Source of the DNA: Mobula hypostoma
Taxonomy: Eukaryota
Assembly: GCF_963921235.1 (NCBI RefSeq)
Contig: NW_026948140.1
Coordinates: 62,001-126,000 of the forward strand
DNA length: 64,000 nucleotides
Reading direction: 5' to 3'
Shown: positions 13,487 to 62,200 of the stretch, piece after piece
How positions within the stretch are numbered: the stretch's first letter is position 1
Layout: each line of letters begins with the position of its first letter
The notes under the pieces: model-generated
Databases searched by the model: none
Seen by the model: only the letters and a program-made list of their open reading frames with translations
What the model was told of the DNA's origin: nothing
Program-made: the position numbers and the translations under genes

Positions 13487-14960
13487 CATAGAAACATAGA
13501 AACATAGAAAATAGGTGCAGGAGTAGGCCATTAGGCCCTTCAAGCCTACACCGCCATTTATTATGATCATGGCTGATCATCCAACTCAGAACCCCGCCCC
13601 AGCCTTCCCTCCATACCCCCTGACCCCCGTAGCCACAAGGGCCATATCTAACTCCCTCTTAAATATAGCCAATGAACTGGCCTCAACTGTTTCCTGTGGC
13701 AGAGAATTCCACAGATTCACCACTCTCTGTGTGAAGAAGTTTTTCCTAATCTCGGTCCTAAAAGGCTTCCCCTCTATCCTCAAACTGTAGCCCCTCGTTC
13801 TGGACTTCCCCAACATCGGGAACAATCTCCCTGCATCTAGCCTGTCCAATCCCTTTAGGATCTTATACGTTTCAATCAGATTCCCCCTCAATCTTCTAAA
13901 TTCCAACGAGTACAAGCCCAGTTCATCCAGTCTTTCTTCATATAAAAGTCCTGCCATCCCAGGAATCAATCTGATGAACTTTCTTTGTACTCCCTCTATG
14001 GCAAGGATGTCTTTCCTCAGATTAGGGGACCAAAACTGCACACAATACTCCAGGTGTGGTCTCACCAAGGCCTTGTACAACTGCAGTAGTACCTCCCTGC
14101 TCCTGTACTCGAATCCTCTTGCTATAAATGCCAGCATACCATTCGCCTTTTTCACCGCCTGCTGTACCTGCATGCCCACTTTCAATGACTGGTGTATAAT
14201 GACACCCAGGTCTCGTTGCACCTCCCTTTTTCCTAATCGGCCACCATTCAGATAATAATCTGTTTTCCTATTTTTGCCACCAAAGTGGATAACTTCACAT
14301 TTATCCACATTAAATTGCATCTGCCATGAATTTGCCCACTCACCCAACCTATCCAAGTCACCCTGCATCCTCTTAGCATCCTCCTCACAGCTAACACTGC
14401 CACCCAGCTTCGTGTCATCCGCAAACTTGGAGATGCTGCATTTAATTCCCTCATCCAAGTCATTAATATATATTGTAAACAACTGGGGTCCCAGCACTGA
14501 GCCTTGCGGTACCCCACTAGTCACTGCCTGCCATTCTGAAAAGGTCCCGTTTATTCCCACTCTTTGCTTCCTGTCTGCTAACCAATTCTCCACCCACACC
14601 AATACCTTACCCCCAATACCGTGTGTTTTAAGTTTGCACACTAATCTCCTGTGTGGGACCTTGTCAAAAGCCTTTTGAAAATCGAAATATACCACATCCA
14701 CTGGTTCTCCCCTATCCACTCTACTAGTTACATCCTCAAAAAATTCTATGAGATTCGTCAGACATGATTTTCCTTTCACAAATCCATGCTGACTTTGTTT
14801 GATGATTTCACCGCTTTCCAAATGTGCTGTTATCAAACCCTTGATAACTGACTCCAGCAGTTTCCCCACCACCGACGTTAGGCTAACCGGTCTATAATTC
14901 CCCAGTTTCTCTCTCCCTCCTTTTTTAAAAAGTGGGTTACATTTGCCACCCTCCAATCCA
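13487..14960 (-). mobile_element. Young CR1 (family A), 5'-truncated, open RT frame
   Basis: 467-aa ORF with FADD; (tttctatg)n tail. Confidence 0.95.
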
Positions 14961-17260: not shown

Positions 17261-17907
17261 TATTAGGTGTGCAAGATAATGAGAGGCATTGATCATGTGG
17301 ATAGTCGAGGCTTTTCCCCAGGGTTAATTAGCTAGCACAAGAGGGCATAGTTTTAAGTGCTTGGAGGTAGGTACAGAGGAGATGTCAGGGTAAGTTTTTT
17401 ACACAGTGAGTGGTGAGTGCGTAGAATGGGCTGCTGGTGGCAGCAGCGGAGGCAGAAACATAGAAACATAGAAAATCGGTGCAGGAGTAGGCCATTCGGC
17501 CCTTCGAGCCTGCACCGCCATTTATTATGATCATGGCTGATCATCCAACTCAGAAACCCGCTGGGCCCAGCCTTCCCTCCATACCCCCTGACCCCCGTAG
17601 CCACAAGGGCCATATCTAACTCCCTCTTAAATATAGCCAATGAACTGGCCTCAACTGTTTCCTGTGGCAGAGAATTCCACAGATTCACCACTCTCTGTGT
17701 GAAGAAGTTTTTCCTAATCTCGGTCCTAAAAGGTTTCCCCTCTATCCTCAAACTGTAACCCCTTGTTCTGGACTTCCCCAACATCGGGAACAATCTTCCT
17801 GCATCTAGCCTGTCCAATCCCTTTAGGATCTTATACGTTTCAATCAGATCCCCCCTCAATCTTCTAAATTCCAACGAGTACAAGCCCAGTTCATCCAGTC
17901 TTTCTTC

Positions 17908-20586
17908 CTATGAAAGTCCTGCCATCCCAGGAATCAATCTGGTGAACCTTCTTTGTACTCCCTCTATGGCAAAGATGTCTTTCCTCAGATTAGGGGACCA
18001 AAACTGCACACAATACTCCAGGTGTGGTCTCACCAAGGTCTTGTACAACTGCAGTAGTACCTTCTTGCTCCTGTACTCGAAGCCTCTCGCTATAAATGCC
18101 AGCATACCATTCGCCTTTTTCACCGCCTGCTGTACCTGCATGCCCACTTTCAATGACTGGTGTATAATAACACCCAGGTCTCGTTGCACCTCCCCTTTTC
18201 CTAATCGGCCACCATTCAGATAATAATCTGTTTTCCTATTTTTGCCACCAAAGTGGATAACTTCACATTTATCCACATTAAATTGCATCTGCCATGAGTT
18301 TGCCCACTCACCCAACCTATCCAAGTCACCCTGCATCCTCTTAGCATCCTCCTCACAGCTAACACTGCCACCCAGCTTCGTGTCATCCGCAAACTTGGAG
18401 ATGCTGCATTTAATTCCCTCATCCAAGTCATTAATATATATTGTAAACAACTGGGGTCCCAGCACTGAGCCTTGCGGTACCCCACTAGTCACTGCCTGCC
18501 ATTCTGAAAAGGTCCCGTTTATTCCCACTCTTTGCTTCCTGTCTGCTAACCAATTCTCCACCCACACCAATACATTACCCCCAATACCGTGTGCTTTAAG
18601 TTTGCACACTAATCTCCTGTGTGGGACCTTGTCAAAAGCCTTTTGAAAATCCAAATATACCACATCCACTGGTTCTCCCCTATCCACTCTACTAGTTACA
18701 TCCTCAAAAAATTCTATGAGATTCGTCAGACATGATTTTCCTTTCACAAATCCATGCTGACTTTGTCCGATCATTCCTCCGCTTTCCAAATGTGCTGTTA
18801 TCACATCCTTGATAACTGACTCCAGCAGTTTCCCCACCACCGACGTTAGGCTAACCGGTCTATAATTCCCCAGTTTCTCTCTCCCTCCTTTTTTAAAAAT
18901 TGGGGTTACATTAGCCACCCTCCAATCCTCAGGAACTAGTCCAGAATCTAACGAGTTTTGAAAAATTATCACTAATGCATCCACTATTTCTTGGGCTACT
19001 TCCTTAAGCACTCTAGGATGCAGACCATCTGGCCCTGGGGATTTATCTGCCTTCAATCCCTTCAATTTAACTAACACCACTTCCCTACTAACATGTATTT
19101 CGCTCAGTTCCTCCATCCCACTGGACCCTCTGTCCCCTACTATTTCTGGAAGATTATTTATGTCCTCCTTAGTGAAGACAGAACCAAAGTAATTATTCAA
19201 TTGGTCTGCCATGTCCTTGCTCCCCATAATCAATTCACCTGTTTCTGTCTGCAGGGGACCTACATTTGTCTTTACCAGTCTTTTCCTTTTTACATATCTA
19301 TAAAAGCTTTTACAGTCCGTTTTTATGTTCCCTGCCAGTTTTCTCTCATAATCTTTTTTCCCCTTCCTAATTAAGCCCTTTGTCCTCCTCTGCTGAACTC
19401 TGAATTTCTCCCAGTCCTCAGGTGAGCCACTTTCTCTTGCTAATTTGTATGCTTCTTCTTTGGAATTGATACTATCCCTAATTTCTCTTGTCAGCCACGG
19501 GTGCACTACCTTCCTTGATTTATTCTTTTGCCAAACTGGGATGAACAATTGTTGTAGTTCATCCATGCAACCTATAAATGCTTGCCATTGCATATCCACC
19601 GTCAATCCTTTAAGTGTCATTTGCCAGTCTATCTTAGCTAATTCATGTCTCATACCTTCAAAGTTCCCCTTCTTTAAGTTCAGAACCTTCGTTTCTGAAT
19701 TAACTATGTCACTCTCCATATTAATGAAGAATTCCACCATATTATGGTCACTCTTACCCAAGGGGCCTCTCACGACAAGATCGCTAATTAACCCTTCCTC
19801 ATTGCTCAAAACCCAGTCCAGAATAGCCTGCTCTCTGGTTGGTTCCTCGACATGTTGGTTCAAAAAACCATCCCGCATACATTCCAAGAAATCCTCTTCC
19901 TCAGCACCTTTACCAATTTGGTTCACCCAGTCTACATGTAGATTGAAGTCACCCATTATAACTGCTGTTCCTTTATTGCACACATTTCTAATTTCCTGTT
20001 TAATACCATCTCCGACCTCACTAATACTGTTAGGTGGCTTGTACACAACTCCCACCAGCGTCTTCTGCCCCTTAGTGCTACGCAGCTCTACCCATATCGA
20101 TTCCACATCTTCCCGGCTTATGTCCTTCCTTTCTATTGCGTTAATCTCTTCTTTAACCAGCAACGCCACCCCACCTCCCCTTCCTTCATGTCTATCCCTC
20201 CTGAATATTGAATATCCCTGAACGTTGAGCTCCCATCCCTGGTCACCCTGGAGCCATGTCTCTGTGATCCCAACTATATCATAATCATTAATAAAAATCT
20301 GCACTTTCAATTCATCCACCTTATTACGAATGCTCCTTGCATTGACACATAAAGCCTTCAGGCGCTCTTTTACAACTCTCTTAGCCCTTGTACAATTATG
20401 TTGAAAAGTGGCCCTTTTTAATGCTTGCCCTGGATTTGTCGGCCTGCCATTTTTACTTTTCTCCTTTGTACTTTTTGCTTCTATGCTCACTTTACACCCC
20501 TCTGTCTCTCTGCACTGATTCCCATCCCTCTGTTGTGAACTAACCTCCTCACGCCTAGCCTCTTTAATTTGATTCCCACCCTCCAA
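17908..20586 (-). CDS. CR1 ORF2: APE endonuclease + RT; single premature TAG at 17908-17910; no AUG before the endonuclease
   Basis: NARSIRNK, ITETW, GDFN, SDHN, FADD; the frame continues (17353-17883) after the stop; sister copies have TAT at this codon. Confidence 0.92.
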   Translation of the reverse strand: MEGGNQIKEARREEVSSQQRDGNQCRETEGCKVSIEAKSTKEKSKNGRPTNPGQALKRATFQHNCTRAKRVVKERLKALCVNARSIRNKVDELKVQIFINDYDIVGITETWLQGDQGWELNVQGYSIFRRDRHEGRGGGVALLVKEEINAIERKDISREDVESIWVELRSTKGQKTLVGVVYKPPNSISEVGDGIKQEIRNVCNKGTAVIMGDFNLHVDWVNQIGKGAEEEDFLECMRDGFLNQHVEEPTREQAILDWVLSNEEGLISDLVVRGPLGKSDHNMVEFFINMESDIVNSETKVLNLKKGNFEGMRHELAKIDWQMTLKGLTVDMQWQAFIGCMDELQQLFIPVWQKNKSRKVVHPWLTREIRDSINSKEEAYKLARESGSPEDWEKFRVQQRRTKGLIRKGKKDYERKLAGNIKTDCKSFYRYVKRKRLVKTNVGPLQTETGELIMGSKDMADQLNNYFGSVFTKEDINNLPEIVGDRGSSGMEELSEIHVSREVVLVKLKGLKADKSPGPDGLHPRVLKEVAQEIVDALVIIFQNSLDSGLVPEDWRVANVTPIFKKGGREKLGNYRPVSLTSVVGKLLESVIKDVITAHLESGGMIGQSQHGFVKGKSCLTNLIEFFEDVTSRVDRGEPVDVVYLDFQKAFDKVPHRRLVCKLKAHGIGGNVLVWVENWLADRKQRVGINGTFSEWQAVTSGVPQGSVLGPQLFTIYINDLDEGIKCSISKFADDTKLGGSVSCEEDAKRMQGDLDRLGEWANSWQMQFNVDKCEVIHFGGKNRKTDYYLNGGRLGKGEVQRDLGVIIHQSLKVGMQVQQAVKKANGMLAFIARGFEYRSKKVLLQLYKTLVRPHLEYCVQFWSPNLRKDIFAIEGVQRRFTRLIPGMAGLS

Positions 20587-20591
20587 CCATT

Positions 20592-21257
20592 CTAGTTTAA
20601 AGTCACCTCAGTAGCCCCCGCTAATCTCCCCGCCAGGATATTGGTCCCCCTAGGATTCAAGTGTAACCCGTCCTTTTTGTACAGATCACGCCTGCGCCAA
20701 AAGAGGTCCCAATGATCCAAAAACTTGAATCCCTGCCCCCTGCTCCAATCCCTCAGCCACGCATTTATCCTCCACCTCATCGCATTCCTACTCTCACTGT
20801 CGCGTGGCGCAGGCAGTAATCCCGAGATTACTACCTTTGCGGTCCTTTTTCTCAACTCCCTTCCTAGCTCCCTATATTCTCCTTTCAGGACCTCGTCCCT
20901 TTTCCTACCTATGTCATTGGTACCTATATGTACCACGACCTCTGGCTCCTCACCCTCCCACTTCAGGATATCTTGGACACGATCAGAAATATCCCGGACC
21001 CTGGCACCAGGGAGGCAAACTACCATCCGGGTCTCTGGACTGCGTCCACAGAATCGCCTATCTGACCCCCTTACTATCGAGTCCCCTATCACAACTGCCC
21101 TCCTCTTCCTTGCCCTACCCTTCTGAGCTACAGGGCCAGACTCTGTGCCGGAGGCACGGCCACTGTCGCTTCCCCCGGGTAAGCTGTCCCCCCCAACAGT
21201 ACTCAAACAGGAGTACCTGTTGTTAAGGGGCACAGCCACCGGGGTACTCCCCATCAC
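20592..21257 (-). CDS. CR1 ORF1 SGNH esterase domain (5'-truncated)
   Basis: VIGDSIVR, HIGTND and DGLHLN: blocks I, III and V of the SGNH fold. Confidence 0.92.
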   Translation of the reverse strand: MMGSTPVAVPLNNRYSCLSTVGGDSLPGGSDSGRASGTESGPVAQKGRARKRRAVVIGDSIVRGSDRRFCGRSPETRMVVCLPGARVRDISDRVQDILKWEGEEPEVVVHIGTNDIGRKRDEVLKGEYRELGRELRKRTAKVVISGLLPAPRDSESRNAMRWRINAWLRDWSRGQGFKFLDHWDLFWRRRDLYKKDGLHLNPRGTNILAGRLAGATEVTLN

Positions 21258-21839
21258 CTGACTTACGATAGGGTCTTTTTAGAGACTCCTGCATGGCTAG
21301 ATGGAGCTTAGGAAAATAGAGGGCTATGGGTAAAGCCTAGGTGGTTCTAAGGTAGGGGCATGTTTGGTACAGCTTTGTGGGCCAAAGTGCTTGTATTGTG
21401 CTGTTTGTTTTCTATGTATCAATGTTTCTCTGTTTCTTTTTCCATTTATCGTTTGTTGTCTTCAGGTAGAACTTTGAACTTGTTTTAGGAACAGAGAAGG
21501 GAGTTAGATGTCAGGTTAGAGTTTAGGAACAGAAATGTAGGGGAATTAGAGATTGGAATGGAGCCTAAGACCAGCATTCAAAGACCAGCAACGTGGACTT
21601 GGGGCATCTGTGATCGGATGTTGGACTGGCAGAGGGTGGTCAAAAGCCCCTCAGGGTCATGAGATTGTTGACAGATTCCAGAGACTGAGTTACACACTAG
21701 TAGGAATTCCATGCAACCCGGAGGAATGAGTTTCATGCGGGATGGAGGAACAAGTTCCAATCATCCTCTGGTTATCACGAAAAGGCAGGTTTGGATTTCC
21801 TGGCTTGGTGTTCAATGTTCAGTGAGACCTGGAAGTCTT

Positions 21840-24834: not shown

Positions 24835-27800
24835 ACACCCACCCTTCTATCCCAACATCCAGGTCGTTAATAAAAATTACGAAAAGTAGAGGTCCCGGAA
24901 CAGATCCTTGTGGGACACCACTAGTCACAATCCTCCAATCTGAATGTACTTCCTCCACCATGACCCTCTGCCTTCTGCAGGCCAGCCAATTCTGAATCCA
25001 CCTGGCCAAACTTCCCTGGATCCCATGCCTTCTAACTTTCTGAATAAGCCTACCGTGTGGAACCTTGTCAAATGCCTTACTAAAATCCATGTAGATCACA
25101 TCCACTGCACTACCCTCATCTATATGCCTGGCCACCTCCTCAAAGAACTCTATCAGGCTTGTTAGACACGATCTGCCCTTCACAAAGCCATGCTGACTGT
25201 CCCTGATCAGACCATGATTCTCTAAATGCCTATAGATCCTATCTCTAAGAATCCTTTCCAACAGCTTTCCCACCAGAGACGTAAGACTCACTGGTCTATA
25301 ATTACCTGGACTAGCCCTACTACCTTTTTTGAACAAGGGGACAACATTCGCCTCCCTCCAGTCCTCCGGTACCATTCCCGTGGACAATGAGGACATAAAG
25401 ATCCTAGCCAGAGGCTCAGCAATCTCTTCCCTCGCCTCGTGGAGCAGCCTGGGGAATACTCCGTCATGCCCTGGGGACTTATTTGTCCTAATGTATTTTA
25501 ACAACTCCAACACCTCCTCTCCCTTAATATCAACATGCTCCAGTACATCAACCTCACTCATATTGTCCTCACCTTCATCAAGTTCCCTCTTAAACTCAAA
25601 TTCTGCTCCTATACCTTATGTAAACTATGCGCAAGTCTCCAAGTGAGGCCGAAGAGAAGTATTCATTGAGGACCTCGCTCACTTCCACAGCCTCCAGGCA
25701 CATCTTCCCATCTTTATCTCTAATCGGTCCTACCTTCACTCTTGTCATCCTTTTTTCCTTCACATAATTGAAGAATGCCTTGGGGTTTTCCTTTACCCTA
25801 CTCGCCAAGGCCTTCTCATGCCCCCTTCTTGCTCTTCTCAGCCCCTTCTTAAGCTCCTTTCTTGCTTCCCTATATTCCTCAATAGACCCATCTGATCTTT
25901 GCTTCCTAAACCTCATGTATGCTGCCGTCTTCCACCTGACTAGATTTTACACCTCACTTGTCACCCATGGTTCCCTCACCCTACCATTCTTTATCTTCCT
26001 CACCAGGACAAATTTATAGAAACATAGAAAATAGGTGCAGGAGTAGGCCATTCGGCCCTTCGAGCCTGCACCGCTATTTATTATGATCATGGCTGATCAT
26101 CCAACTCAGAAACCCGCCCCAGCCTTCCCTCCATACCCCCTGACCCCCGTAGCCACAAGGGCCATATCTAACTCCCTCTTAAATATAGCCAATGAACTGG
26201 CCTCAACTGTTTCCTGTGGCAGAGAATTCCACAGATTCACCACTCTCTGTGTGAAGAAGTTTTTCCTAATCTCGGTCCTAAAAGGCTTCCCCTCTATCCT
26301 CAAACTGTGGCCCCTCGTTCTGGACTTCCCCAACATTGGGAACAATCTCCCTGCATCTAACCTGTCCAATCCCTTTAGGATCTTATACGTTTCAATCAGA
26401 TCCCCCCTCAATCTTCTAAATTCCAACGAGTACAAGCCCAGTTCATCCAGTCTTTCTTCATATGAAAGTCCTGCCATCCCAGGAATCTATCTGGTGAACC
26501 TTCTTTGTACTCCCTCTATGGCAAGGGTGTCTTTCCTCAGATTAGGGGACCAAAACTGCACACAATACTCCAGGTGTGGTCTCACCAAGGCCTTGTACAA
26601 CTGCAGTAGTACCTCCCTGCTCCTGTACTCGAATCCTCTCGCTATAAATGCCAGCATACCATTCACCTTTTTCACCGCCTGCTGTATCTGCATGCCCACT
26701 TTCAATGACTGGTGTATAATGACACCCAGGTCTCGTTGCACCTTCCCTTTTCCTAATCGGCCACCATTCAGATAATAATCTGTTTTCCTATTCTTGCCAC
26801 CAAAGTGGATAACTTCACATTTATCCACATTCAATTGCATCTGCCATGAATTTGCCCACTCACCCAACCTATCCAAGTCACCCTGCATCCTCTTAGCATC
26901 CTCCTCACACCTAACACTGCTACCCAGCTTCGTGTCATCCGCAAACTTGGAGATGCTGCATTTAATTCCCTCATCCAAGTCATTAATATATATTGTAAAC
27001 AACTGGGGTCCCAGCACTGAGCCTTGCGGTACCCCACTAGTCACCGCCTGCCATTCTGAAAAGGTCCCGTTTATTCCCACTCTTTGCTTCCTGTCTGCTA
27101 ACCAATTCTCCACCCACACCAATACCTTACCCCCAATACTGTGTGCTTTAAGTTTGCACACTAATCTCCTGTGTGGGACCTTGTCAAAAGCCTTTTGAAA
27201 ATCCAAATATACCACATCCACTGGTTCTCCCCTATCCACTCTACTAGTTACATCCTCAAAAAATTCTATGAGATTCGTCAGACATGATTTTCCTTTCACA
27301 AATCCATGCTGACTTTGTCCGATCATTTCACCGCTTTCCAAATGTGCTGTTATCACATCCTTGATAACTGACTCCAGCAGTTTCCCCACCACCGACGTTA
27401 GGCTAACCGGTCTATAATTCCCCGGTTTCTCTCTCCCTCCTTTTTTAAAAAAGTGGGGTTACATTAGCCACCCTCCAATCCTCAGGAACTGGTCCAGAAT
27501 CTAACGAGTTTTGAAAAATTATCACTAATGCATCCACTATTTCTTGGGCTACTTCCTTAAGCACTCTAGGATGCAGACCATCTGGCCCTGGGGATTTATC
27601 TGCCTTCAATCCCTTCAATTTAACTAACACCACTTCCCTACTAACATGTATTTCGCTCAGTTCCTCCATCCCACTGGACCCTCTGTCCCCTACTATTTCT
27701 GGAAGATTATTTATGTCCTCCTTAGTGAAGACAGAACCAAAGTAATTATTCAATTGGTCTGCCATGTCCTTGCTCCCCATAATCAATTCACCTGTTTCTG

Positions 27801-37285: not shown

Positions 37286-38490
37286 ATAGTCATAGTCATA
37301 CTTTATTGATCCCGGGGGAAATTGGTTTTTGTTACAGTTGCACCATAAATAATAAATAGTAATAGAATCATAAGTAGTTAAAAAGTAATATGTAAATTAT
37401 GCCAGTAAATTATGAAATAAGTCCAGGACCAGCCTATTGGCTCAGGGTGTCTGACCCTCCAAGGGAGGAGTTGTAAAGTTTGATGGCCACAGGCAGGAAT
37501 GACTTCCTATGACGCTCTGTGCTGCATCTCGGTGGAATGAGTCTCTGGCTGAATGTACTCCTGTGCCCACCCAGTACATTATGTAGTGGATGGGAGACAT
37601 TAACTAAGATGGCTTGCAACTTGGAAAGCATCCTCTCTTCAGACACCACCGTCAGAGAGTCCAGTTCCATCCCCACAACATCACTGGCCTTATGAATGAG
37701 TTTGTTGATTCTTTTGGTGTCTGCTACCCTCAGCTTGCTGCCCCAGCACACAACAGCAAACATGATAGCACTGGCCACCACAGACTCGTAGAACATCCTC
37801 AGCATCATCCAGCAGATGTTAAAGGACCTCACTCTCCTCAGGAAATAGAGACGGCTCTGACCCTTCTTGTAGACAGCCTCAGTGTTCTTTGACCAGTCTA
37901 GTTTATTGTCAATTCATATCCCCAGGTATTTGTAATCCTCCACCATGTGCACACTGACCCCCTGAATGGAAACAGGGGTCACCGGTACCTTAGCTCTCCT
38001 CAGGTCTACCTCCAGCTCCTTAGTCTTTTTCACATTAAGCTGCAGATCATTCTGCTCACACCATGTGACAAAGTTTCCTACCGTAGCCCTGCACTCAACC
38101 TCATCTCCCTTGCTGATGTATCCAACTATGGCAGAGTCATCCGAAAACTTCTCAAGATGACAAGACTCTGAGCAGTAGTTGAAGTCTGAGGTGCAAGTGG
38201 TGAAGAGAAAGGGAGACAAGACAGTCCCCTGTAGAGCCCCAGTGCTGCTGATCACTCTGTCGGACACACAGTGTTGCAAGCACACGTACTGTGGTCGGCC
38301 AGTCAGGTAATCAAGAATCCATGATACCAGGGAAGCATCCACCTGCATCACTGTCAGCTTCTCCCCCAGCAGAGCAGGGTGGATGGTGTTGAACGCACTG
38401 GAGAAGTCAAAAAACATGACCCTCACAGTGCTCGCTGGCTTGTCCAGGTGAGCGTAGACATGATTTAGCAGCTAGATGATGGCATAGCTT
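37286..38490 (-). mobile_element. Rex1/Babar LINE 3' part
   Basis: FFDFSSAFNTI, QGTVLSPFLF, KFSDDS; AATAAA and (tatgac)n tail. Confidence 0.9.
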
Positions 38491-40535
38491 CAGGGGCATA
38501 GCTAGGGGGCAGAGCTTCAGATTCCTGGATCATTTGGGCCTCTTCTAGGGGAGGTACAACCTGTACAAAAAGGATGGGTTACACCTTAAGCCAAAGGGTT
38601 CCAATATCCAAGCAGACAGGTTTAATAGACCTGTTCAGGAGGGTTTGAACTAATTTGGCAGGGGGATTGGAAATTGAGTGATAGGGCTGAGGAAGGGGAT
38701 AACAGAAATGAATCAAAGATAGTGTGCAACAGAGGTGATAGAGAGGGCAAGCAGGAGATGAGGCATAATCACAGCCAGTGGGCTCAGTTACAGGGCAATA
38801 GAGGTGTGATGTGGTTAAAATAGAAAACAACAAATACTGGACTGAAAGTGTTATATTTGAATGCACACAGCATAAGAAATGAAATGGACTATCTTGAAAT
38901 TCAGCTACAGATTGGCCAGTATGACGTTGTGGCCATCTCTGAAACTTGGCTAAAGAATGGCTGCCATTGGGAGCTGAACGTCCAAGGATATAGGGTGTAT
39001 CGGAAAGATAGGTTAGCAGGCAGAAGGGGAGGCATGGCCCTGTGTGTAAGAAATAATATTAAATCATTAGAAAGGGATAACATAGGATTGGAAGGAGTTG
39101 AGTCTCTATGAGTTGAGTTAAGAAATTGGCAAGGGTAAAAGGACTCTAATGGCAGTTGTATACAGGCCTCCAAACAGCAGCCAGGATGTGGATTACAAAT
39201 TACAGCAGGAGACAGAAAAGACGTGTCAGAAGGGTAATGTCATGATAATTGTCGGGGATTTTAACATGAAAGTGGATTGGGAAAACAAGACCGGTACTGG
39301 ACCTCAAGAGAGAGAATTTGTAGAATGTCTAAGGGATGGCTTTTTAGAACAACTTGCTGTTGAGCCCACTAGGGGATCAACTGTGCTGGATTGGATGTTG
39401 TGCAATGATCTGGAGGTGATAATAGAGTTTAAGGTTAAGGAGCCCTAAGGGAACAGTGATCACAATATGATCGAGTTCACTTTGAAATTTGAGAAGGAGA
39501 AACTAAATTCCAATGTGTCGGTATTTCAGTGGAATAAAGGAAATTACAATGGCATGAGAGGGGAACTGGTCAAAGTTGACTGGAAAGGGACACTTGCAGG
39601 AAAGACAGCAGAGCAGCAATGGCTGGAGTTTCTGTGAAAAATGAGGGAAGTGCAAGACAGATATATTCCAAATAAGAAGAAATTTTTGAATGAAGAAGGC
39701 CACTACTGTGGCTGACAAGTGAAGTCAGAGCCAAAGTAAAAGCAAAAGAGAGGGCATACAAAGAAGCCAAAGCCAGTGGGAAAATAGAAGATTGGGAAGC
39801 TTTTAAAAACTTGCAGAAGGAAACTAAGAAGGTCATTAGGAAGGAAAATATGAATTATGAAAGGAAGCTGGCGACTAATATCAAAGAAGATACTAAAAGC
39901 TTCTTTAAGTATATAAAGGGTATAAAGAGAGTTGAGGGTAGCTATAGGACCAATAGAAAATGATACTGGTGATATTGTAATGAGAGATGCAGAGATGCCA
40001 GAGGAACTGAATACATAATTTGCATCAGTCTTCACAGTGAAAGACATCTGCACAATACCAGACATTCAAGAGTGTCAGGGAAGTGAATTTTGTACAATGA
40101 AAATTATGACTGAGAAGGTGCTCAGGAAGCTTAATGGTCTGAGGGTGGATAAATCTTCTGGACCTGATGGAATGCACTCTCAGGTTCTGAAGGAAGTAGC
40201 TGGAGAGATTGCAGAGGCATTAACAATGATCTTTCAAGAATCGATAGATTCTGCCATTGTACCGGATGACTGGAAAATTGTAAATGTTACTCCACTATTT
40301 AAGAAGGGTGGGAGGCTGCAGAAAGGAAACTATAGACCTGCTAGCCTTACATCAGTGGTTGGGAAGTTGTTGGAATCGATTATTAGGAATGAGATTACAG
40401 AGTACCTGGAGGCACATAACAAAATAGGCCAATGCCAGCATGATTTCCTGAAAGGAAAATCCTGCCTGACTAACCCACTGCAATTTTTTGAAGAAATTGC
40501 AAGCAGGGTAGACAAAGGAAATATAGTGGATGTGA

Positions 40536-59228: not shown

Positions 59229-62200
59229 TCAGTCAGCAAAATTAAAGATGGAGCATGAATTGCAATTAAAACAGCTCAAGTCTGAGAAAGCAGAAATGCA
59301 GAGAGTGCATGAGGCTAGAGAGGCAGACAAACAGAGAGAGGAGGCAGAATAGACAATAGTCTATAGGTGCAGAAGTAGACCATTTGGCCCTTCGAGCCCG
59401 CTCCGCCATTCTGAGATCATGGCTGATCATCTACTATCAATACCCGGTTCCTGCCTTGTCCCCATAACCCTTGATTCCCCTATCCATAAGATACCTATCT
59501 AGCTCCTTCTTGAAAGCATCCAGAGAATTGGCCTCCACTGCCTTCTGAGGCAGCACGTTCCACACCTCCACAACTCTCTGGGAGAAGAAGTTCCTCCTCA
59601 ACTCTGTCCTAAATGACCTACCCCTTATTCTTAAACCATGCCCTCTGGTACTGGACTCTCCCAGCATCTGGAACATATTTCCTGCCTCTATCTTGTCCAA
59701 TCCCTTAATAATCTTATATGTCTCAATCAGATCCCCCCTCAATCTCCTTAATTCCAGCGTGTACAAGCCCAGTCTCTAACCTCTCTGCCTAAGACAGTCC
59801 AGACATCCCAGGAATTAACCTAGTGAACCTACGCTGCACCTCCTCCACAGCCAGGATGTCCTTCCTTTACCCTGGAGACCAAAACTGCACACAATACTCC
59901 AGGTGTGGTCTCACCAGGGCCCTGTACAAATGCAAAAGGATTTCCTTGCTCTTGTACTCAATTCCCTTTGTAATAAAGGCCAACATTCTATTAGCCTTCT
60001 TCACTGCCTGCTGCACTTGCTCATTCACCTTCAGAGACTGATGAACAAGTACCCCTAGATCTCTTTGTATTTCTCCCTTACCTAACTCCACACTGTTCAG
60101 ATAATAATCTGCCTTCCTGTTCTTGCTCCCAAAGTGAATAACCTCACACTTATTCACATTAAACGCCATCTGCGAATGAGGGAGAGTGTTTGAGAGGGAG
60201 ATATTGCAGCAAGGAGGTCAAGTGTCATGCCGAGGTAATGAACAGGCATCACTGTTTAATATTAGTCAACAAATTAAGTTGGTATCTCCATTTGAGGAAT
60301 CAGAAGTCGATAGGTATTTCCTACATTTTGAAAAAGTGGCCATAAATCGGAAGTGGCCGTGAGATCAGTGGGCTGTTCTGTTACAAAATGTGATTAAGGG
60401 AAAGGCTCAATGAGCGTATTTGGCGTTGTCTGTTGCGGATGCAAATGATCATGATAGAGTGAAAGGTGCTGTACTTAAGGTTTACGAGTTGGGTCCGGAG
60501 GTGTACAGGCAAAGTTTCTGAAATTTGAGGACGCCTTGGGACCGTTTTCTTATGATATCATTCTGGAGGAACGTTGTATCATTTTTTAATGCATGCATTT
60601 CTAAATGACAATAAATGAAACTTGCTACTTAGTACTTAAAGTCTGTCATCTGTAGCCTGCACAGAGAAAACAACTGAAAGAATTAATTAGCAGGCATAAA
60701 GACTTATTTCCGGACGTTCCAAGAGGGTGCACAGCATGACGTCATTGTAAATTCAGCCCAACCCATTAAACAGCATCCTTACAGAATGAACTTAGAGAGA
60801 AGAAAAATGTTTGAAAAAGAAATTGGCTACATGCTAGCAACCGATATCATTAGGCAATCTACCTCAGACTGGGCAGCGCCCTGCGTTCTTGTGCGTAAAC
60901 CGGACAGTAACATGAGATTCTGTACTGTCTACAGGAAAATCAATGCGATAACCAAGGCAGATGCTTATCCTATCCCGAGAGTGGATGACTGTATTGATAA
61001 AGTGGGAAAGTCTAAGTACCTCACAAAAATTGATTTGCTAAAAGGATTTTGGTCTGTTCCTTTGACTGAAAGGGCCAGAGAAATCTCTGCATTTGTCACA
61101 CCTTCTGGGCTGTGCTTCAGGGACATTTCAAAGAATGATCAATTCTGTGATTACAGGTTTAGAAAATACAGGGGCTTATATTGATGATCTGGTTGTATGG
61201 AGTGACACGTGGGAAGAGCATATTGTGGCTGTAGAAAAACTGTTTGAAAGGCTATCCAAGGCCAATCTTACTGTGAACCTCGCTAAAAGTGAGTTTGGCC
61301 AGGCTACAGTTACATATCTGGGCTATGTAATAGGCCAGGGCCAACGGGCTCCTGTACAGGCCAAGGTTCAAGCTATTGCTGAGGTTCCCGTTCCGACTGG
61401 CAGGAAAGCTTTAAGAAGGTTTTTAGGAATGGTGGGTTATTACCGAAAGTGTTGTATGAACTTTGCAGATATCGTTCTTCCCCGTAACAAAATTCCTAGG
61501 GAAGAGTGAAAGATTTGTATGGAATGACCTTTGCCAGGAGGCATTTGAACGTCAGGAGGGCTAAAAGAAGAGTCAAAGTGAAGGATAATCCAAAGAGCTT
61601 TTACAAGTATATTAAGAGTAAAAGGATTGTACGGGATAAAATTGGTCCTTTTGAAGATCAGAGTGGTCGGCTATGTGCGGAACCAAAGGAAATGGGGGAG
61701 ATCTTAAATAGGTTTTTTGCGTCTGTATTTACTAAGGAAACTAGCATGAAGTCTATGGAATTGAGGGAATCAAGTAGTGAGATCATGGAAACTGTACAGA
61801 TTGAAAAGGAGGAGGTGCTTGCTGTATTGAGGAAAATTAAAGTGGATAAATCCCCGGGACCTGACAGGGTGTTCCCTCGGACCTTGAAGGAGACTAGTGT
61901 TGAAATTGCGGGGGCCCTGGCAGAAATATTTAAAATGTCGCTGTCTATGGGTGAAGTGCCGGAGGATTGGAGAGTGGCTCATGTTGTTCCGTTGCTTAAA
62001 AAAGGATCGAAAAGTAATCCGGGAAATTATAGGCCGGTGAGTTTAACGTCAGTAGTAAGTAAGTTATTGGAGGGAGTACTAAGAGACAGAATCTACAAGC
62101 ATTTGGATAGACAGGGACTTATTAGGGAGAGTCAACATGGCTTTGTGCATGGTAGGTCATGTTTGACCAATCTATTGGAGTTTTTCGAGGAGGTTACCAG

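Follow-up and report, generated by a model that had tools for sequence, protein, structure and literature searches.

A putative -1 ribosomal frameshift signal at the ORF1-ORF2 junction of esterase-type CR1-group LINEs

How do ribosomes that have translated the first open reading frame (ORF1) of a long interspersed nuclear element (LINE) reach the second (ORF2), which encodes the reverse transcriptase, when ORF2 offers no usable start codon? The question is raised by a CR1-group LINE copy in a stretch of Mobula hypostoma DNA of 64,000 nucleotides (nt), positions 62,001 to 126,000 of the forward strand of contig NW_026948140.1 (assembly GCF_963921235.1), which we refer to as the window and number from its first letter. 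The initial annotation of the window proposed that a -1 frameshift site joins the esterase ORF1 of this copy to an ORF2 encoding an apurinic/apyrimidinic endonuclease (APE) and a reverse transcriptase (RT), and every comparative test that we ran supported this central proposal. Our reading is that the junction probably acts as a programmed -1 ribosomal frameshift signal through which a fusion of ORF1 and ORF2 is made. The copy and its parts are as follows:

~21260 to ~17454, minus strand: copy of a young CR1-group LINE that we call the W family, with limits set by tblastn and blastn
20595..21260, minus strand: ORF1 remnant, an SGNH/GDSL esterase ending in ...ATEVTLN (Pfam Lipase_GDSL_2, E 1.5e-17)
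20607-17911, minus strand: ORF2 frame of 899 open codons, -1 relative to ORF1
Within ORF2, minus strand: variable linker of ~80 codons, APE endonuclease at ~19744-20304, reverse transcriptase at ~18232-18894
17910-17908, minus strand: premature in-frame ORF2 stop, past which the same frame goes on with recognisable ORF2 C-terminal sequence

The ORF1 remnant is 96% identical to a 311-residue homologue and matches the solved esterase of the ZfL2-1 ORF1 protein (ORF1p; structure 4c1b, E 9e-28), and in ORF2 the Pfam domain Exo_endo_phos (E 1.8e-11, residues 95-281) is followed by RVT_1 (E 1e-32). With an esterase-type ORF1, an APE-type endonuclease and an RT the element is, on domain content, a CR1-group LINE in the broad sense of the term, and may belong to the CR1 clade proper, to L2 or to another CR1-group clade. 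The window copy itself is dead, being 5'-truncated and carrying one in-frame stop in ORF2. A full-length ORF1 homologue matches from residue 90, at 21260 (tblastn), which sets the truncation at about ORF1 codon 90; at the other end, similarity to sister copies stops at 17445-17460 in the window (blastn). The ORF2 frame passes this latter limit without a stop and runs into the flank (17353-17460, minus strand).

The junction between the two frames is built from five features:

20610-20608, minus strand: TGA closing the -1 (ORF2) frame upstream
20601-20595, minus strand: slippery heptamer T_TTA_AAC in the X_XXY_YYZ phase of ORF1, the proposed site of the -1 shift
20594-20592, minus strand: ORF1 stop TAG, adjoining the heptamer
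20588-20575, minus strand: G-rich tract GGTTGGAGGGTGGG, 6 nt past the heptamer, a candidate stimulator
19956-19954, minus strand: first ATG of the ORF2 frame (...AVIMGDFN...), inside the endonuclease and, counted from the first base of that ORF1 stop, 638 nt downstream

Read on the minus strand, ORF1 ends in ACT (20603-20601), TTA (20600-20598), AAC (20597-20595) and TAG (20594-20592), which bears out the phase claimed for the heptamer in the initial annotation. Its other anatomical claims agree with our reading as well. The -1 frame (TGA GGT GAC TTT AAA CTA GAA TGG TTG GAG GGT GGG) is indeed the long open frame of ORF2, at 899 codons; the upstream TGA and the short overlap are where they had been placed, the overlap measuring 16 nt with the heptamer within it; and since this TGA closes the frame, entry into ORF2 is confined to the overlap. 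No start codon overlaps or adjoins the ORF1 stop in the ORF2 frame, as stop-start coupling would call for. The listed ORF2 start is, as described, a TTG (20586), the lone nearby ATG (20590-20588) lies in the third frame and runs into a TAA after 8 codons, and the first methionine of ORF2 indeed lies deep in the endonuclease, inside the Pfam match. The G-rich tract is likewise found six nt past the heptamer; its majority form in the family is GGTTGGGGGGTGGG (28 of 30 sister copies), the A at 20582 being private to the window copy.

If the junction works as we propose, ribosomes translating the esterase ORF1 would come to U_UUA_AAC, where tRNA-Leu would occupy the P site and tRNA-Asn the A site; the codon that follows is the ORF1 stop (UAG or UAA), and a G5-N2-G3 run lies 9-10 nt further on, where the mRNA enters the ribosome. 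The majority would terminate here, releasing ORF1p. A minority would slip back by one base (UUA to UUU, AAC to AAA), continue with CUA GAA UGG..., and read through the variable linker, the endonuclease and the reverse transcriptase, so that a fusion of ORF1p, linker, APE and RT would be made at a ratio both low and fixed, as Gag-Pol is. That slippage actually takes place, that the G-run and the stop contribute to it and that the fusion is the functional form we infer from the arrangement of the sequence.

Could a heptamer have come to stand at the ORF1 end of a single, recently amplified family by chance, and simply have been copied along with it? Taken by themselves, the sister copies would allow this. 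The 3.5-Gb genome holds at least 1282 candidate matches to the junction; all 40 of those scored are 98-100% identical, and TTTAAACTAG is retained in each of the 30 sister copies fetched. As copies at this level of identity are very young, their agreement alone carries no weight. We therefore turned to other lineages, using divergent ORF1 proteins from other species as genome queries with the terminal eight residues omitted, such that ORF1 ends were read without the motif having served to locate them. Each query returned tens of thousands of ORF1 candidates, among which we distinguish at least six CR1 lineages with ORF1s ~45-70% identical to each other in protein. All six have xxT TTA AAC, TAA or TAG directly after it, and the G-run 9-10 nt past the heptamer:

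W family (window): ACT TTA AAC TAG aatggttGGGGGGTGGGAATC
Second lineage: GGT TTA AAC TAA tttggcaGGGGGATGGGAACC
Third lineage: GCT TTA AAC TAG atttgcaGGGGGATGGGAACC
Fourth lineage: GGT TTA AAC TAG atttgcaGGGGGAGGGGAACC
Fifth lineage: GGT TTA AAC TAA atttgcaGGGGGCAGGGATCC
Old, decayed family: GCT TTA AAC TAA atagtaGGGGGGTGGGTTCAAC

The finding of the same arrangement in five further lineages, together with the signal in protein termini across vertebrate classes described below, means that chance is, as judged by sequence comparison, already contradicted, and we regard it as an extremely improbable explanation. The pattern holds at the level of individual loci. Among 58 distinct junctions, fetched by ORF1 protein queries or by coordinates and not by motif, 43 have TTTAAAC followed by TAA or TAG, seven have a one-base variant (TTTAAAT, TTTGAAC and TTTAAGC twice each, CTTAAAC once), of which TTTAAAT is still a canonical heptamer, and in the remaining eight the ORF1 end is disrupted. 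The stop is TAA in 31 of the 43 intact junctions, TAG in 12 and TGA in none, so that TTTAAACTA is invariant in this set; the two bases past the heptamer, or the CUA codon of the -1 frame, may thus be part of the signal. Of the 43, 39 have a run of the form G4-6 N1-2 G3-4 no more than 30 nt from the stop. The window itself holds a second, older junction, from another lineage:

38644..38653 (in a copy at 38489-39135), plus strand: CR1 ORF1/ORF2 junction reading GGT TTG AAC TAA, then tttggcaGGGGGattgg

Here the heptamer has decayed by one A>G change, and the downstream ORF2 homology is again in the -1 frame.

A different objection is that the end of ORF1 might be conserved for reasons unconnected with decoding: Leu-Asn-stop could be kept for the C-terminus of ORF1p, or as an RNA motif for packaging or another non-translational role, with ORF2 being translated from a separate RNA (5'-truncated or internally initiated) and the slippery appearance a coincidence. 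Leu-Asn is indeed invariant in an alignment of 16 sequences of 33-74% identity, terminal motifs can act at the protein level, and most LINE copies, that of the window included, are 5'-truncated. The tail preceding Leu-Asn is, however, highly variable in the same alignment, and lies past the end of the alignment to the solved esterase fold: 4c1b aligns only up to residue 302 of 311, leaving the terminal Leu-Asn outside. Codon usage argues against a protein-level constraint more directly. In six representative ORF1s TTA accounts for 13 of 148 Leu codons (8.8%), AAC for 22 of 53 Asn codons, and T-ending codons for ~25% of Thr, Gly and Ala codons, and an x-Leu-Asn end is therefore expected to be written as TTTAAAC in ~0.9% of cases (~0.009 per lineage); it is so written in six lineages out of six. 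A constraint on the protein would not fix TTA, AAC and the preceding NNT. In the alignment of the six lineages TTTAAACTA forms nine invariant columns, the longest invariant block, and GGGGG..GGG is invariant too; ORF1 upstream of the block varies at third positions, and the sequence past the G-run is barely alignable. As judged by codon usage and alignment, the heptamer is conserved beyond coding need.

The C-termini of ORF1 proteins from other species carry the same signature. We assembled 254 homologues, a word-indexed search supplying 120 and a profile search of 1.84 billion representatives the other 134, and took 181 of them as having complete C-termini on the grounds that the esterase DGxHx motif lies 15-70 residues from the end. 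Asn is the last residue in 138 of the 181, with 118 ending in Leu-Asn, 10 in Gly-Asn and three in Lys-Asn. In 116 of the 118 Leu-Asn proteins an NNU codon exists for the preceding residue (which is T, S, G, A, Y, C, D, N, H, F, I or V), the background share in these proteins of the residues that have no U-ending codon (E, K, Q, M and W together) being 0.20. Before Gly-Asn we find Gln nine times and Ser once, all NNG-capable, and before Lys-Asn Ser, Gly or Ala, all NNA-capable. That the three endings come with matching preceding residues is the pattern expected of X_XXA_AAC with X being U, G or A, and not of a protein motif, which would not yield such alternatives. Named sources of the Leu-Asn class include rays, sharks, sawfish, coelacanth, frogs, turtles, lizards and snakes, and what we propose for this junction probably holds for esterase-type CR1-group elements as a whole.

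Some of the homologues are misfiled or mispredicted. Two of them (P0015 and P0099), 63-65% identical to the ORF1 of the window copy, are entered in public databases under Pseudomonas aeruginosa and Proteus mirabilis as 'SGNH/GDSL hydrolase family protein'; their contigs are short and have the look of cartilaginous-fish contamination in bacterial assemblies, and P0099 crosses the frame change into a -1-frame peptide, ...FKLIWQGDG.... Three more (P0014, P0052 and P0053) are automated gene models from rays and sawfish that fuse a CR1 ORF1 to host genes, under '40S ribosomal protein S24 isoform X2', 'transmembrane protein 204 isoform X3/X5' and the like. In the genome search, some ORF1 copies lie in open frames of 474-707 codons, far beyond ORF1 length (for example C18:184806011-184806937, C52:78983362-78984285 and C68:4336496-4337419), and these may be in-frame ORF1/ORF2 fusions made by indels.

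What lies downstream of the junction bears on how ORF2 is entered. The linker that separates the ORF1 stop from the first conserved motif of the endonuclease is 143-320 nt long and varies greatly among lineages in both length and sequence. It is nevertheless free of stops in the -1 frame in six of six lineages, the 0 frame having 0-12 stops and the +1 frame 6-10. It is the -1 frame that carries the endonuclease in 31 of the 43 intact junctions, the other 12 being older, decayed copies with indels, and the placing of ORF2 in the -1 phase by the initial annotation is thereby upheld. In 22 of these 31 junctions no stop interrupts the -1 frame between heptamer and endonuclease, and in 21 of the 22 it is closed by an upstream stop 13-25 nt before the ORF1 stop. 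A stop-free linker combined with so close an upstream stop implies that ribosomes translating the linker must enter it within a few codons around the heptamer. Translation of ORF2 from a separate RNA needs no stop-free linker reaching back to the heptamer, and such an RNA would still have no AUG ahead of the endonuclease in two of the lineages: the ORF2 frame has its first ATG at +638 in the W family and at +305 in the lineage that we refer to as IGEALN, inside the endonuclease in both cases. On this evidence and that of codon usage and the C-termini, we judge a protein or RNA role of the ORF1 end, with ORF2 made from a separate RNA, to be quite improbable. The W family and IGEALN, abundant and intact-looking, are, as judged by their reading frames, unable to make a complete endonuclease from an AUG. 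As the W family is very young and abundant with no usable AUG, some non-AUG route into ORF2 must work.

The remaining rival concerns the nature of that route. ORF2 could be translated by termination-reinitiation or by AUG-independent initiation after the ORF1 stop, ORF1p and ORF2p being separate proteins and the heptamer and the G-run being kept for another reason, such as retention of the post-termination ribosome. It is here that the first of the observations weighing against frameshifting belong: three other lineages have an ORF2-frame ATG at +107, +47 and +14 nt past the stop, and one contig from another organism reads AAC TAA TG, that is, UAAUG with the AUG in the ORF2 frame. The absence of an in-frame ATG ahead of the endonuclease, on which the initial annotation had relied, thus stands for the W family and IGEALN and fails for these sister lineages, and because of the ATGs reinitiation stays a live rival for part of the group. 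Three lineages, moreover, have UGGGA within the G-run, and UGGGA is the 18S-complementary core of the reinitiation motifs of caliciviruses. Folding by minimum free energy (MFE) found no canonical frameshift-stimulating structure, which also suits reinitiation. There are precedents among LINEs in the parts of two papers available to us: initiation of L1 ORF2 is AUG-independent by a mechanism described as unknown (Atkins et al. 2016), and SART1 relies on UAAUG coupling together with a downstream structure (Luke et al. 2013). Reinitiation, however, leaves three things unexplained: the in-phase canonical heptamer fixed at synonymous sites, the constant -1 phase of ORF2, and the way in which the residue preceding Leu-Asn, Gly-Asn or Lys-Asn tracks the third base required. 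Nor is any start codon, AUG or near-cognate, conserved across the lineages compared. The position of the G-rich motif is a further difficulty: it lies downstream of the stop, and known reinitiation motifs lie upstream of it. Weighing these points together, we find reinitiation or AUG-independent initiation unlikely as the general route into ORF2.

Further points against frameshifting come from the search for a stimulator. The 120 nt past the heptamer fold like shuffled sequences (MFE -13.1 kcal/mol, z 0.00), no lineage has more than weak local hairpins (-1.4 to -7.5 kcal/mol in 40-45 nt), 20350-20750 has no Rfam match at E <= 1, and no C-rich partner for the G-run was found within ~1.5 kb. A hairpin or pseudoknot stimulator is therefore rejected as far as MFE folding can tell, no dedicated pseudoknot tool having been run. 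The initial annotation had suggested a two-tier G-quadruplex. With quadruplex energies switched on, one starting 6 nt past the stop is predicted for the W family and for one other lineage; the other four lineages have three usable G-tracts, and a universal quadruplex is accordingly discarded. What survives of the suggestion is G5-N2-G3 itself, common to all six lineages at a near-fixed distance of 9-10 nt past the heptamer, and a spacer of this length is at the long end of the typical range. In the -1 frame the G-run encodes Gly-x-Gly (x being G, D, E, A, V or M), and it could serve as a signal in the RNA, as a motif in the peptide, or as both. The conserved abutting stop may itself promote slippage by slowing the ribosome, and such adjacency of heptamer and stop is known from some plant RNA viruses. 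As a LINE needs very little ORF2p, a low efficiency from heptamer and stop alone might be enough.

The protein termini contribute their own exceptions: 43 of the 181 end in a residue other than Asn, and Glu precedes Leu-Asn in two of the 118. The Gly-Asn ends fit G_GGA_AAC and the Lys-Asn ends A_AAA_AAC, heptamers that are read from protein ends only; when a Gly-Asn-ending lineage was sought in the Mobula genome, the best matches were Leu-Asn lineages at 33-44% identity. Finally, both the lineages and the database proteins are related to one another, and are not independent samples.

We also aligned contigs of four runs from four organisms, of uncertain molecule type, on 20300-20900. Variants are many in the flanks, and among the 40 variants listed, a further 42 being less well supported, there is none at 20583-20616; at 20582 the contigs have the G of the family. 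The loose ends of two contigs from other lineages also carry TTTAAACTA, in ...GAGGGTTTAAACTAC... and ...GAGGATTTAAACTAATG.... A search for related loci in metagenome contigs gave pattern matches in two scans, none of them confirmed, and none were found in viral contigs. Three bacterial GDSL loci from a genome-contig scan proved unrelated and are excluded from all counts. In the window, CR1 debris is abundant, with more than 40 tblastn matches to the ORF2 of the copy studied here on both strands, and two 3' fragments of the W family, 95% identical, lie at 13946-14935 and 26463-27452.

Taken together, the comparisons suggest a broader, and more tentative, picture. The esterase-type CR1-group LINEs of jawed vertebrates, along with their Gly-Asn and Lys-Asn relatives, may share an ancient, compact recoding cassette made up of X_XXA_AAC, an abutting UAA or UAG, and G5-N2-G3 9-10 nt further on, with neither hairpin nor pseudoknot. 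Stop-assisted -1 frameshifting into an ORF1p-ORF2p fusion would then be the normal source of RT in the dominant LINE group of vertebrates, and the G-run would be a new kind of stimulator, acting as a quadruplex in some lineages and through contact with the ribosome or a protein (possibly ORF1p) in others. We consider this generalisation somewhat less likely than not.

How does such a cassette compare with known systems? Frameshifting by -1 on U_UUA_AAC is known from coronaviruses and arteriviruses and from the pro-pol junctions of deltaretroviruses. The CR1 junction resembles these in having the identical heptamer and phase, a short overlap with a polymerase ORF in the -1 frame, and a polymerase fusion that would be a fixed minority product; it differs from coronavirus-type sites in lacking any predicted pseudoknot or stable hairpin, in having the 0-frame stop directly against the heptamer and the conserved G5-N2-G3 3' of it, and in belonging to a non-LTR (long terminal repeat) retrotransposon. 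In luteoviruses and dianthoviruses a shifty heptamer is directly followed by the 0-frame stop, and hairpins and long-range pairing are used. The likeness here is in the adjacency of heptamer and stop and in the -1 access to a polymerase ORF, whereas the heptamer is different and no counterpart of the long-range pairing was found within ~1.5 kb. G-quadruplexes stimulate -1 frameshifting in reporter systems; the CR1 junction shares with these a G-rich tract a few nt 3' of the slippery site, but a quadruplex is predicted in only two of the six lineages.

Among retroelements, Gag-Pol frameshifting is described, in the excerpts available, as -1 at gag-pol of avian leukosis virus (ALV) and as +1 in Ty1 and Ty3. 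As in these elements, a structural or accessory first ORF would be joined to an RT-bearing second ORF, setting the ratio of the two; unlike retroviruses and LTR elements, LINEs have neither capsid nor protease, and an ORF1p-ORF2p fusion would need either to work uncleaved or to be cut by some other factor. With L1 and SART1 the CR1-group elements share the need for ribosomes to pass from ORF1 to ORF2 on one RNA and the very small amount of ORF2p made. L1 and SART1, however, have no ORF overlap around a slippery heptamer and make separate proteins, whereas the anatomy of the CR1 junction points to a fusion. Expression of Drosophila HeT-A gag is said, in the part of a review available to us, to need frameshifting (Atkins et al. 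2016). HeT-A would thus be another non-LTR element with frameshifting, the difference being that its shift lies within gag and that it has no RT ORF.

Frameshifting by -1 is therefore a known mechanism; what would be new is its conserved use, in the context of a stop and a G-run, for ORF2 in the main vertebrate LINE group. In Drosophila jockey, a -1 overlap of ORF1 and ORF2 was reportedly noted decades ago. Our full-text literature search found no report of frameshifting at the CR1 ORF1/ORF2 junction, although an early remark in the original CR1 descriptions (Kajikawa 1997; Kapitonov and Jurka 2003; Haas 1997) is possible. A term search of the accessible text of PMC13343379, PMC4120745, PMC5009743, PMC4316615, PMC3894237, PMC3905857, PMC4255032, PMC1947958, PMC11835228 and PMC5911963 likewise returned no such mention. 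The literature searched by term, again as far as its text was accessible, included a 2026 survey of the CR1 group, a 2014 study of Jockey-superfamily ORF1, the 2013 esterase structure and a 2016 review of frameshifting; in the text available of a 2013 review of non-LTR protein biogenesis, the word 'frameshift' occurs zero times.

The translation of ORF2 from a bicistronic LINE RNA is a long-standing question, and for this group the cassette offers a concrete hypothesis that can be tested by mutation. CR1-group elements are the main LINEs of most non-mammalian vertebrates. If frameshifting holds true for them, the fusion would tether the lipid-binding esterase ORF1p to the RT in cis, and the missing ORF2 start codon of active families would be explained. 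It would provide an annotation rule, that of joining ORF1 and ORF2, for thousands of elements whose ORFs gene prediction at present cuts short or fuses wrongly, and would add a natural -1 frameshift site that has no obvious RNA structure. And it would mean that non-LTR elements, too, use the Gag-Pol strategy, the opposite of the two-protein paradigm of L1.

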